A stretch of 64,000 bases of DNA. It comes from an uncultured Alphaproteobacteria bacterium. GTDB taxonomy: Bacteria > Pseudomonadota > Alphaproteobacteria > RF32 > CAG-239. The stretch is taken from positions 203,952 through 267,951 of the forward strand of contig CALXTV010000001.1 in assembly GCA_944391505.1 (NCBI GenBank). Reading direction: 5' to 3'. The notes below the pieces were generated by a model. It did no database searches, was not told the origin of the DNA, and was given only the letters and a program-made list of their open reading frames with translations. The translations under genes were made by a program, and so were the position numbers. This document shows, piece after piece, positions 50,031 to 51,795 of the stretch; the stretch's first letter is position 1, and each line of letters opens with the position of its first letter.

Positions 50031-51572
50031 CTAAAATTCCATTACAGGCCAAACTTGTGTATAAAGATTATCTTTGTAGTTCCATTGTAAGCCATATTGA
50101 TAATCCATATTTGAATACCAAACATTCGTACCGTTATATTCAGTTGAAGCCCGACCCATACCGGCCAAAATCAAAGATTTGTATCCGCCGAGTGTTTTGA
50201 GAATATTACTTAATGTAGAACGATTATTATAAACATTCGTCAAAATTCCCGCGGCAGGTAAACACCACTTGCCTTGAGTTTCCGTCGTCGGTGCATATTT
50301 ACGCGTTGCCCAGGCCGCTGGGTAGGAGCTGGCGTTACCGGCGGCTATAAGTTTATCTGTATTGCCGCAACTATCAAAGTCTTTTGCTGCATTTGCCGCT
50401 GTTGTATAATTAGTTAATGTAGATATGTCTGTACCATAAGGCCCCCATGCCATTCCCGCAAGACGTCCTGATTTATTAGGGGCTCCGTTTTTATCAACAG
50501 GCCACAGAGCCATAATCTGTCCGCCTATACCGTCAGCATTAACATAAACCACAATGCCCAAAGCAGTTTTGCTGCTGTCATGGTTGGCGGCGGCAACGCA
50601 GGTATTGTCCGTATAGAAAATATCGCCGATATTGCAGCTCGGACGAACGGCCACACAACTGTTTCCCGATGCCTTATATCCTGATTTGCAGCCCCAAGAG
50701 CTTATTTTAGACGAACAGTCGGAAAAATAAGTACAAGTTGCATTGGCCGGACAGCTGCTGATAACTGCCGTTCTGTTTCGGCAGTTGTCTTTATACGGCG
50801 TTTCGCACTTGGAAGAACAGTCCGACCAGTATTTCATACAGCCGTAAACTGCCGAGTTGTTGTCCGTGCGCTTGTGGCAGTTATCCGTATAAGCCGTCTT
50901 GCAAACCGACGAGCACGGCGAGCCGTAATATTCCTTACAGCCGTAAGTTCCCGCGCTTACACCGGACGGACAAACACAGCCGGTATATTTTCCCCCGCAG
51001 GTTGCTCCCGATACTGACCTTGGTGATGTACAGTTGGAAGAGTTGTAAACATATTCCGATTTGCAGGCACAGGATTGATATTTGCCGCCGCAGCTTGCTC
51101 CCTGACCAACCTGGTTGGACGCACAGCTGACCAGTTTCGGGTCACACTGACAAGAGGCATATTTGCCGCCGCAGCTTTCGCCCACGCCGACCTGTCCGGC
51201 CGGGCAGGTAACCAGATTGGAGGCGCATTTGCAACCTTTGCCGTAAGATGAGTTATAAGGGCAGGTTCCGTCAATCACCTGAACCGAATTACAGTTTACT
51301 TTTGAGAAACCCTCGTTCTGGCATTGTTTGGCCGTATCGATTGAATAATTTTCGTCGCCCGAACCAAATCCTGCATTCGGGTCACAGTCGCCATAACCAA
51401 GGAAACAGACTGCCGCTGTTTTATAAGAGTGAGACATATCAATAAAAGAGACGGGCTCCGGTTTGGGTGTGTGTTTTGGTGTATGTGTAGGAAAGCCGGA
51501 GGCAAGAACCAAACCGGGCAGTAAAGCCGTACCCGATAATAAAGAGAAGAACAAAACGGATTTATTCATCAT
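50031..51572 (-). CDS. secreted cysteine-rich tandem-repeat protein with DUF1566 (Lcl-like) C-terminal domain
   Basis: Start at MMNKSVLFFSLLSGTALLPGLVLASG (signal peptide; GGTGA RBS); the ORF-track extension to 51716 was rejected. Three ~24-aa repeats xC(P/A)xxQVGxGxSCGGKYxSCxC and two ~27-aa repeats YGC(K/M)xYxxxCSSxCxTxYxDNC. C-terminal GKWCLPAAGILTNVYNNRSTLSNIL resembles the DUF1566 WxLPxxxEL motif. Confidence 0.7.
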   Translation of the reverse strand: MMNKSVLFFSLLSGTALLPGLVLASGFPTHTPKHTPKPEPVSFIDMSHSYKTAAVCFLGYGDCDPNAGFGSGDENYSIDTAKQCQNEGFSKVNCNSVQVIDGTCPYNSSYGKGCKCASNLVTCPAGQVGVGESCGGKYASCQCDPKLVSCASNQVGQGASCGGKYQSCACKSEYVYNSSNCTSPRSVSGATCGGKYTGCVCPSGVSAGTYGCKEYYGSPCSSVCKTAYTDNCHKRTDNNSAVYGCMKYWSDCSSKCETPYKDNCRNRTAVISSCPANATCTYFSDCSSKISSWGCKSGYKASGNSCVAVRPSCNIGDIFYTDNTCVAAANHDSSKTALGIVVYVNADGIGGQIMALWPVDKNGAPNKSGRLAGMAWGPYGTDISTLTNYTTAANAAKDFDSCGNTDKLIAAGNASSYPAAWATRKYAPTTETQGKWCLPAAGILTNVYNNRSTLSNILKTLGGYKSLILAGMGRASTEYNGTNVWYSNMDYQYGLQWNYKDNLYTQVWPVMEF

Positions 51573-51795
51573 GGCATCACCTCGCGACAAAGTTAAAAAC
51601 CGGAGCCCGGAAGGGCAGAGAGGTGAAGACGAACTTAAAGACGGAAGACGCACACAAGCAGCTTCTTTTCCGAAGCGAAACACACTTGCCGTTCGGAAAA
51701 CATCGTTAATCCACACCTATCAAAACTTATGATATACTGAATTTTGATAAGAGTCAATATTTATTGGGACCAACCTTATTTTTGGCAACAAAAAA

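Follow-up and report, generated by a model that had tools for sequence, protein, structure and literature searches.

To our knowledge, the sole characterised member of the DUF1566/Lcl_C superfamily binds host glycosaminoglycans (GAGs). In the Legionella surface adhesin Lcl, the C-terminal domain (Lcl-CTD) is a DUF1566 head that binds sulphated GAGs, and the number of stalk repeats varies (PMC11162425). Lcl is a type II secretion substrate with a trimeric head, and an N-terminal amphipathic helix serves its association with the outer membrane (PMC11162425). Among targets of diversity-generating retroelements (DGRs) in human gut metagenomes, DUF1566 is also the most frequent domain, and the structure 4eps has been used as a template for DUF1566 DGR target proteins (PMC4159848).

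Here we analysed a gene from an uncultured gut alphaproteobacterium in a 64,000-nucleotide window (the whole stretch of DNA under study, along which all positions are numbered). Such gut Alphaproteobacteria, which are uncultured, occur commonly in the gut metagenomes of humans and animals, and we are aware of no work on their attachment or on how they perceive their environment. A preliminary description had proposed that the product carries a signal peptide followed by Cys repeats of two families and ends in an Lcl/DUF1566-like domain, and this architecture was borne out by our analysis.

Gene, start codon and N-terminus

The open reading frame occupies 50031..51572; it is read on the minus strand, from an ATG at 51572 to a stop codon at 50031-50033, and encodes a product of 513 aa. 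When no start is chosen, the frame reaches an upstream GTG at 51716. We took ATG 51572 as the start because it is preceded by a Shine-Dalgarno sequence, the signal peptide begins there, and the 94% identical homologue P0001 also begins with MMNKSV; the longer frame from GTG 51716 was dropped on these same grounds. Four promoter-like sites were observed in the region against 2.9 expected, so that the site listed below is weak evidence of a promoter. The features around the start of the gene are as follows.

51729..51757, minus strand: promoter-like site TTGACT-17-TATCAT (10/12), ~157 nt upstream of the start codon, a consensus match only
51578..51583, minus strand: Shine-Dalgarno sequence GAGGTG, 5 nt before ATG 51572; the upstream sequence reads ...GCGAGGTGATGCC and then ATG
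51501..51572, minus strand: Sec signal peptide, residues 1-24, MMNKSVLFFSLLSGTALLPGLVLA, read directly from the sequence
51426..51500, minus strand: Pro/Thr-rich linker, residues 25-49 (SGFPTHTPKHTPKPEP...), variable in the family (entropy 1.8 bits)
51381..51425, minus strand: N-terminal motif YKTAAVCFLGYGDC, residues 50-64, highly conserved (entropy 0.56)

The signal peptide, which is followed by SG, appears to be of the signal peptidase I type, with cleavage likely after V-L-A and no lipobox Cys; those of the homologues differ in sequence but are equivalent. Within the motif YKTAAVCFLGYGDC, the residues A, C, F, L, G and C are invariant in an 18-sequence alignment. The linker was modelled in part, and its residues 40-49 have pLDDT < 50. 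Residues 40-76 as a whole also model at pLDDT < 50, though residues 50-64 rank among the best conserved of the protein, and the motif is a candidate interaction or anchoring element. A lipoprotein anchor through its conserved 'AAVC' was ruled out, since the motif is not preceded by a hydrophobic stretch and has Val or Ile at position -1.

A predicted stalk built from Cys modules

The protein contains 36 Cys, fewer than the more than 40 counted in the preliminary description; 34 of them lie within residues 56-325, followed by C402 and C437 in the head. The Cys-rich part is divided as follows.

51207..51380, minus strand: N-terminal Cys module, residues 65-122, containing 6 Cys and made up of a short helix plus two hairpins (from alignment and model)
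50952..51206, minus strand: three A-type repeats, residues 123-149, 150-176 and 181-207, each modelled as a beta-hairpin
50754..50951, minus strand: two B-type 33-aa repeats, residues 208-240 and 241-273, the length-variable part of the stalk
50655..50753, minus strand: terminal Cys module, residues 274-306 (CPANATCTYFSDCSSKISSWGCKSGYKASGNSC), weakly EGF-like, a degenerate B unit

The A-type repeats follow the pattern C-x10-C-GGKY-xx-C-x-C, with four Cys per copy. Three copies of CGGKY had been reported, and three were indeed found by pairwise local alignment (z = 6.0-11.5, with 0/500 shuffles scoring as high), but their period is 27-31 aa rather than ~24 aa: the CGGKYxxCxC elements start at residues 134, 161 and 192, with spacings of 27 and 31 aa. 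At the DNA level, A1 and A2 share 75% identity across 60 nt (E 4.6e-5). The B-type repeats follow the pattern YGC-x6/7-C-x2/3-C-x7-C-RNRTAV and are present in two copies, as had also been proposed; they start at residues 210 and 243 and have 16/26 aligned residues in common (z = 12.8), with a period of 33 aa and not the ~27 aa first given.

The terminal module, with the spacing C-x5-C-x5-C-x8-C-KSGY-x3-G-x2-C, aligns with B2 at z 3.8 and represents a third, degenerate B unit. A profile search of the Cys modules had been suggested with EGF-like domains in mind, and the last module answers weakly to this suggestion: the EGF profile PF12946 (EGF_MSP1_1) gave below-threshold matches in relatives, in one search at 25.7 bits against a cut-off of 27 and in another in 10 of 18 members, whereas the window protein itself gave no match and does not qualify as containing an EGF domain. 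When the whole protein and its halves were scanned, the Cys modules matched no family in Pfam, NCBIfam or PHROGs, in agreement with the earlier view that they are unusual for bacteria. The stalk modules are undescribed and occur in no domain database searched (these same three). No GXY collagen-like repeats are present in the sequence.

All stalk Cys are invariant in the 18-sequence alignment. In an AlphaFold2 model built from those 18 sequences only, residues 77-309 reached pLDDT > 85, with an overall pTM of 0.48, a low value that an elongated chain of small modules is expected to give. The modelled stalk consists almost wholly of beta-hairpins, one per A repeat and a hairpin with a short turn per B repeat.

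A divergent Lcl_C-type head

Beyond the stalk, the C-terminal part of the protein comprises a predicted domain and two patches that vary strongly in the family.

50034..50642, minus strand: C-terminal head, residues 311-513, predicted divergent Lcl_C/DUF1566-type C-type-lectin-like fold
50373-50492, minus strand: second variable patch of the head, residues 361-400 (entropy up to 2.0-2.6 bits)
50043..50222, minus strand: most variable segment of the head, residues 451-510 (entropy 1.9-2.6 bits)

The earlier assignment of this region to DUF1566 had been staked in advance on a Pfam HMM search, and that search found no match: hmmscan against Pfam returned nothing for the whole protein at E <= 1 or for the isolated head at E <= 10, and an NCBIfam scan gave no family for the window protein. 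The head stays short of the gathering threshold of PF07603 (Lcl_C), 34.9 bits, and weak PF07603 matches were obtained for 8 of 32 family heads (best E 0.0014). Profile comparison, distant relatives and the predicted fold nevertheless support the assignment. With hhalign, the head profile aligned to the Pfam-positive Lcl_C region of P0252 (probability 92%, E 5.9e-7) and, with a probability of 97% (E 5e-11), to residues 1062-1287 of P0165, which adjoin a PF07603 match at 944-1044. Distant relatives carrying the same Cys modules exceed the PF07603 threshold, with 56.5, 60.6 and 38.9 bits against 34.9.

Against PDB sequences, the head profile found 4eps (E 0.0056) and 8q4e (E 0.11), and the alignment with these two covers the GDxYYxDG...LGIVV hairpin and the GKW-x-LP..G.L...WSSSE...VRPV core. 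The Lcl_C core motifs W-x-L-P..G.L and WSSxE...V.PV are shared, and sequence homology to bona fide members is detectable. The motif WCLPAAGIL, on which the preliminary description had relied, is present and near-invariant across the family; the conserved motifs of the head are SCGNTDK, GKWCLPAAG and the C-terminal ending PV(L/M)EF.

An AlphaFold2 model of the head from a 32-sequence alignment reached pLDDT 93.2 and pTM 0.90, and its best Foldseek match in the PDB was the Legionella Lcl C-terminal domain 8q4e (E 3.9e-4, probability 1.0). As modelled, the head matches the solved Lcl-CTD fold, a C-type-lectin-like variant, and its nearest structural relatives are extracellular binding domains in every case. 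Because the fold match, the hhalign results and the above-threshold relatives agree despite the Pfam failure, we read the head as Lcl_C-type. Judged by sequence profiles and the predicted structure, it is a divergent Lcl_C/DUF1566-type C-type-lectin-like domain at the superfamily level, and the window protein is only a sub-threshold member of Pfam Lcl_C.

Within the head, C313-C325 and C402-C437 likely form disulfides. Its net charge is 0 (pI 7.0), so that the electrostatic GAG-binding mode of Lcl is not simply transferable to it. Segment 451-510 is rich in Asn, Tyr and Ser across the family and is a candidate ligand-contact surface, by analogy with the C-type-lectin-fold binders Mtd and TvpA (PMC4159848).

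A large family with variable stalks and alternative C-termini

One search returned at least 887 homologues, every one unnamed, and a profile search of 1.84 billion cluster representatives gave 335 clusters at E <= 1e-3, among them 171 that reached E <= 1e-10. Our literature search found no paper on the family. The named sources are metagenome-assembled Alphaproteobacteria genomes (MAGs) only, and those with a documented origin are gut-derived (Candidatus Scatocola faecigallinarum, isolate HGM16780); the source of Candidatus Scatocola faecigallinarum is chicken faeces (PMC8035907). Several paralogues occur per genome, with five loci in one MAG and a tandem pair in L003, and none were found elsewhere in the window.

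A check for variation in repeat number had been proposed, and the number does vary for the B repeat, whose copies range from one to seven among 120 homologues (two copies in 55, three in 41, four in 14 and five in 8), the maximum of seven being reached in a single homologue (P0003). The A repeat is present in three copies in nearly all of them and in a single copy in 5/120; in the single-A proteins, an in-register deletion of 58 aa takes out exactly 8 Cys.

The C-terminus varies in another way. An Lcl_C-like head was found in 65 of the 120 best homologues and other C-termini in the remaining 55, which have the same stalk (~70% identity) joined to at least eight other C-termini. These include several Cys-rich modules of 55-145 aa and one domain of 340 aa. 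A Pfam search with ten proteins bearing alternative C-termini revealed no toxin or enzyme family and no domain match for those C-termini. Per alignment column, the family entropy is 0.3-1.0 bits in the stalk compared with 2.0-2.6 bits in the head patches 361-400 and 451-510.

Purifying selection and exchange of the stalk

Comparison with the syntenic orthologue on L013 gave a dN/dS of 0.089; the gene is real and under strong purifying selection. Synonymous divergence between the two is spread unevenly, with dS of 0.35-0.87 over codons 31-360 and 0.03-0.13 over codons 361-513, and the flanking genes of the two loci show dS of 0.038 (rpsA) and 0.10 (cmk). Because dS is high over the stalk and the first part of the head and low in the rest and in the flanks, this segment was replaced by recombination. 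Codons 451-513 differ from the orthologue by one synonymous and no non-synonymous change.

A paralogue at another locus (P0115, on L020) has its own signal peptide and its own C-terminus, unlike those of the window protein. Over window residues 51-180 the two are nonetheless identical at 130/130 aa, compared with 124/130 for the orthologue. Their DNA is 97-100% identical at gene nt 211-450, and the identity drops sharply to ~30% at nt ~150 and ~810. The stalk acts as a cassette that is exchanged between paralogues.

Genomic neighbourhood and export

The gene order cmk-rpsA-gene-gyrB is common to the window and the L013 orthologue, and the immediate neighbours of the window gene are housekeeping genes. 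The gyrB/rpsA arrangement is kept only in the 94% identical orthologue and not in 12 genome loci. No dedicated secretion or anchoring genes were present among the neighbours listed for the window, L013 and L016-L020, which are housekeeping genes. In the window protein itself we found no lipobox, autotransporter, sorting signal or Lcl-like amphipathic N-terminal helix. A porin gene within the window indicates a diderm context, and a DsbA gene lies directly upstream of the homologue P0013 in two of three contexts.

Discussion

We consider it somewhat better than an even chance that the gene product is a modular exported ligand-binding protein, most likely an adhesin. After Sec export and cleavage by signal peptidase I, as predicted from the sequence, the periplasmic Dsb system would make ~18 intra-module disulfides, a number that we infer because the Cys are all invariant and even in number and four-Cys units are gained or lost in register. 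Residues ~65-310 would then form the stalk, modelled as an elongated chain of small disulfide-stapled beta-hairpin modules that starts with the N-terminal module, continues through three A and two B repeats and ends in an EGF-like cap. Such a stalk may serve as a protease-resistant spacer whose length is set by the number of B repeats across the family. At its distal end it would present the head, whose C-type-lectin-like fold is drawn from the model and from structure comparison. By analogy with Lcl, Bd2740, Mtd and invasin, the head loops 361-400 and 451-510 may bind a ligand; plausible candidates are glycans or surface molecules, whether from the gut host, from mucus or from other microbes. 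A conserved stalk cassette with at least eight alternative heads would give each genome a repertoire of binding specificities. The putative role in host interaction suggested in the preliminary description is plausible.

Since nothing beyond the Sec peptide was seen in the way of export or anchoring signals or genes, the protein could remain in the periplasm. It would then be an envelope protein, exported by Sec and oxidised by Dsb but never carried past the outer membrane, whose stalk spans the periplasm and whose head binds the cell's own peptidoglycan, a polysaccharide or an envelope machine. In line with this, the Sec signal peptide stands alone: neither a signal for outer-membrane passage or for anchoring nor a nearby secretion gene was seen, and several paralogues lie among cell-envelope and housekeeping genes. 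However, a fixed scaffold with fast-diverging or swapped heads and multiple paralogues typifies proteins whose ligand is external and changes, rather than internal, and each of the nearest structural relatives of the head is an extracellular binding domain; we regard a periplasmic role as unlikely. The joining of a conserved N-terminus to many C-termini, with recombination in the conserved part, is also the hallmark layout of polymorphic toxins, in which case the stalk would be a delivery or receptor-binding module and the swapped C-termini the payloads of a secreted effector, toxin or bacteriocin-like protein directed against competitors or host cells. Yet none of the ten tested proteins with alternative heads matched a toxin or enzyme family in Pfam, and the heads have a lectin-like fold or are small Cys-rich modules. 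In addition, the genes downstream at the listed loci either have housekeeping roles or lack annotation, no candidate immunity gene was seen to recur among them, and the listed neighbourhoods hold no T6SS, Rhs or CDI markers. These findings make a toxin very improbable.

A DGR variable protein, with the C-type-lectin-fold end hypermutated by a reverse transcriptase from a template repeat, or a receptor-binding protein derived from a phage, would likewise account for a diverse head. The head resembles 4eps in structure, both 4eps and DUF1566 are linked to DGR targets (PMC4159848), and variation in the family peaks in the last 60 residues, a segment with many Asn, Tyr and Ser. However, neither the 64-kb window nor four related loci yielded a template repeat matching the 3' end of the gene, and the protein sequence encoded by codons 451-513 is unchanged from the orthologue, the opposite of hypermutation; we therefore rejected a DGR target at this locus. 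A phage origin was rejected as well, as the flanking genes are housekeeping, PHROGs gave no match, and a scan of 2.9 million viral contigs, limited by the patterns it used, revealed no relative. We attach next to no weight to either form of this explanation.

Returning to the adhesin-like reading, it can be carried further to the level of the family. It is conceivable, and we advance it tentatively, that these proteins represent an undescribed class of surface or secreted proteins specific to uncultured gut Alphaproteobacteria. In such a class, a monomeric disulfide-stapled stalk with two new types of Cys module would be a recombination cassette, and at least eight unrelated heads (the Lcl_C lectin-like head, the 340-aa domain and several small Cys-rich knots) would be swapped by gene conversion between paralogues. 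The class would parallel, in bacteria, the variant Cys-rich surface proteins of eukaryotes and serve to vary adhesion specificity or antigenicity in the gut.

The main value of the locus lies at the family level, in a large, uncharacterised and recombining repertoire of stalks and heads in uncultured gut Alphaproteobacteria. Its homologues, at least 887 of them, the multiple paralogues found in a genome and the exchangeable heads make this family a strong candidate for the principal set of adhesion or recognition proteins in these bacteria. Should the model prove correct, the Cys modules show that bacteria can build rod-like spacers from EGF-style disulfide modules in place of collagen, coiled coils or beta-helices. 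The locus is in addition a clear natural case of cassette exchange between paralogues, and its head extends the DUF1566/Lcl_C superfamily, itself poorly understood, by a divergent branch.

Comparison with known systems

The Bdellovibrio MAT fibres, such as Bd2740 (PDB 8oks), have 4% identity to the head and no detectable sequence relationship with it, and their stalks are trimeric beta-helical or coiled fibres without Cys repeats, unlike the stalk described here. Bacteroides ovatus BACOVA_04982 (PDB 4eps), the C-terminal domain of a 'fimbrial' hypothetical protein, has only 19% identity to the head; this domain follows N-terminal domains that are not Cys-rich and has no Cys-repeat stalk of the kind found in the window protein. 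For the modelled stalk, the likeness is to the EGF-like, TNFR-like and CCP modules of eukaryotic extracellular proteins, small beta-hairpin modules with 2-3 disulfides each that form rod-like extracellular spacers, and the last stalk module carries the motif C-x-x-G-Y-x3-G-x2-C.

Legionella pneumophila Lcl (lpg2644; CTD, PDB 8q4e) has in common with the window protein a stalk with a variable number of repeats and a DUF1566 head. The Lcl stalk, however, is a trimeric collagen triple helix of GXY repeats, whereas that of the window protein is made of disulfide-rich hairpin modules of 27-33 aa. The heads differ as well: Lcl-CTD lacks disulfides and binds GAGs through a strongly basic face, in contrast to the two conserved Cys pairs and zero net charge of the window head. 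The protein most likely resembles Lcl in its way of working, yet it is outside the Lcl collagen-like adhesin family (gly_rich_SclB + DUF1566), because it has no GXY repeats and its stalk is made of Cys repeats.

Mosaic divergence of the Cys-stalk gene

We compared the gene of the exported Cys-stalk protein (window 50031-51572) with its syntenic orthologue (L013 8001-9542) and found that divergence is distributed unevenly along its length. Codons 31-360 gave dS values of 0.35-0.87, and codons 361-513 gave only 0.03-0.13; for the flanking rpsA and cmk genes, dS was 0.04-0.10 between the same two loci. Moreover, residues 51-180 of the window protein are identical at 130/130 positions, with sharp breakpoints, to the paralogue P0115, which is encoded at a different locus (L020 6001-7785). 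Taken together, the mosaic dS pattern and this sharply bounded identity indicate that the stalk underwent gene conversion between paralogues.

Family members, architectures and the N-terminal region

Family members occur at five separate loci in the MAG O15_L1 bin.74, and a tandem pair that overlaps by ~20 nt (L003 4025-5977 and 5956-7695) was seen in an uncultured Alphaproteobacteria MAG. In the distant relative P0165 (1444 aa), an A-type (CGGKY) Cys module (...CEAPYEGVGEACDGKYASC...) is seemingly inserted within a head-like domain at residues 1062-1287, and a separate, Pfam-positive Lcl_C domain is additionally present. The modules are thus rearranged within larger proteins, whose length reaches 1562 aa.

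Few segments are as well conserved across the family as a short N-terminal motif:

Window 51381-51425 (residues 50-64): motif YKTAAVCFLGYGDC

Despite its high conservation, the motif has a pLDDT below 50 in the AlphaFold2 model; it may serve as an anchor, bind a partner or act as a secretion signal. Upstream of the window gene, the mechanical ORF gains 48 codons and reaches a GTG (window 51573-51716). A similar N-terminal extension precedes the MKKSVLMF signal peptide of the NCBI-annotated homologue P0026 (564 aa), where it is probably a mis-called start.

Genomic neighbourhood

In two of the three genomic contexts of the Cys-stalk homologue P0013, the gene directly upstream, on the same strand, belongs to the DsbA family (PF01323); in the third, a LexA gene occupies this position.

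L016 8973-9695, same strand as P0013: DsbA-family gene
L018 8773-9495, same strand as P0013: DsbA-family gene

Small ankyrin-repeat proteins are encoded near one paralogue (L019 3501-4965) and a Cas9/Cas1/Cas2 locus near another (L016 16055-21653); flagellar and type IV pilin genes are also present in genomes carrying family members. These genes are consistent with motile, host-associated bacteria.

In the window, a further ORF adjoins gyrB:

45065-47323, minus strand: 752-aa ORF

At a Pfam cut-off of E <= 1e-5 it has no match, and it lacks an obvious signal peptide. Its product contains a zinc-metalloprotease-like HEMGH (HExxH) motif and a Gln/Asn/Ser-rich linker, and it may be one of the candidate effectors mentioned in the preliminary description.
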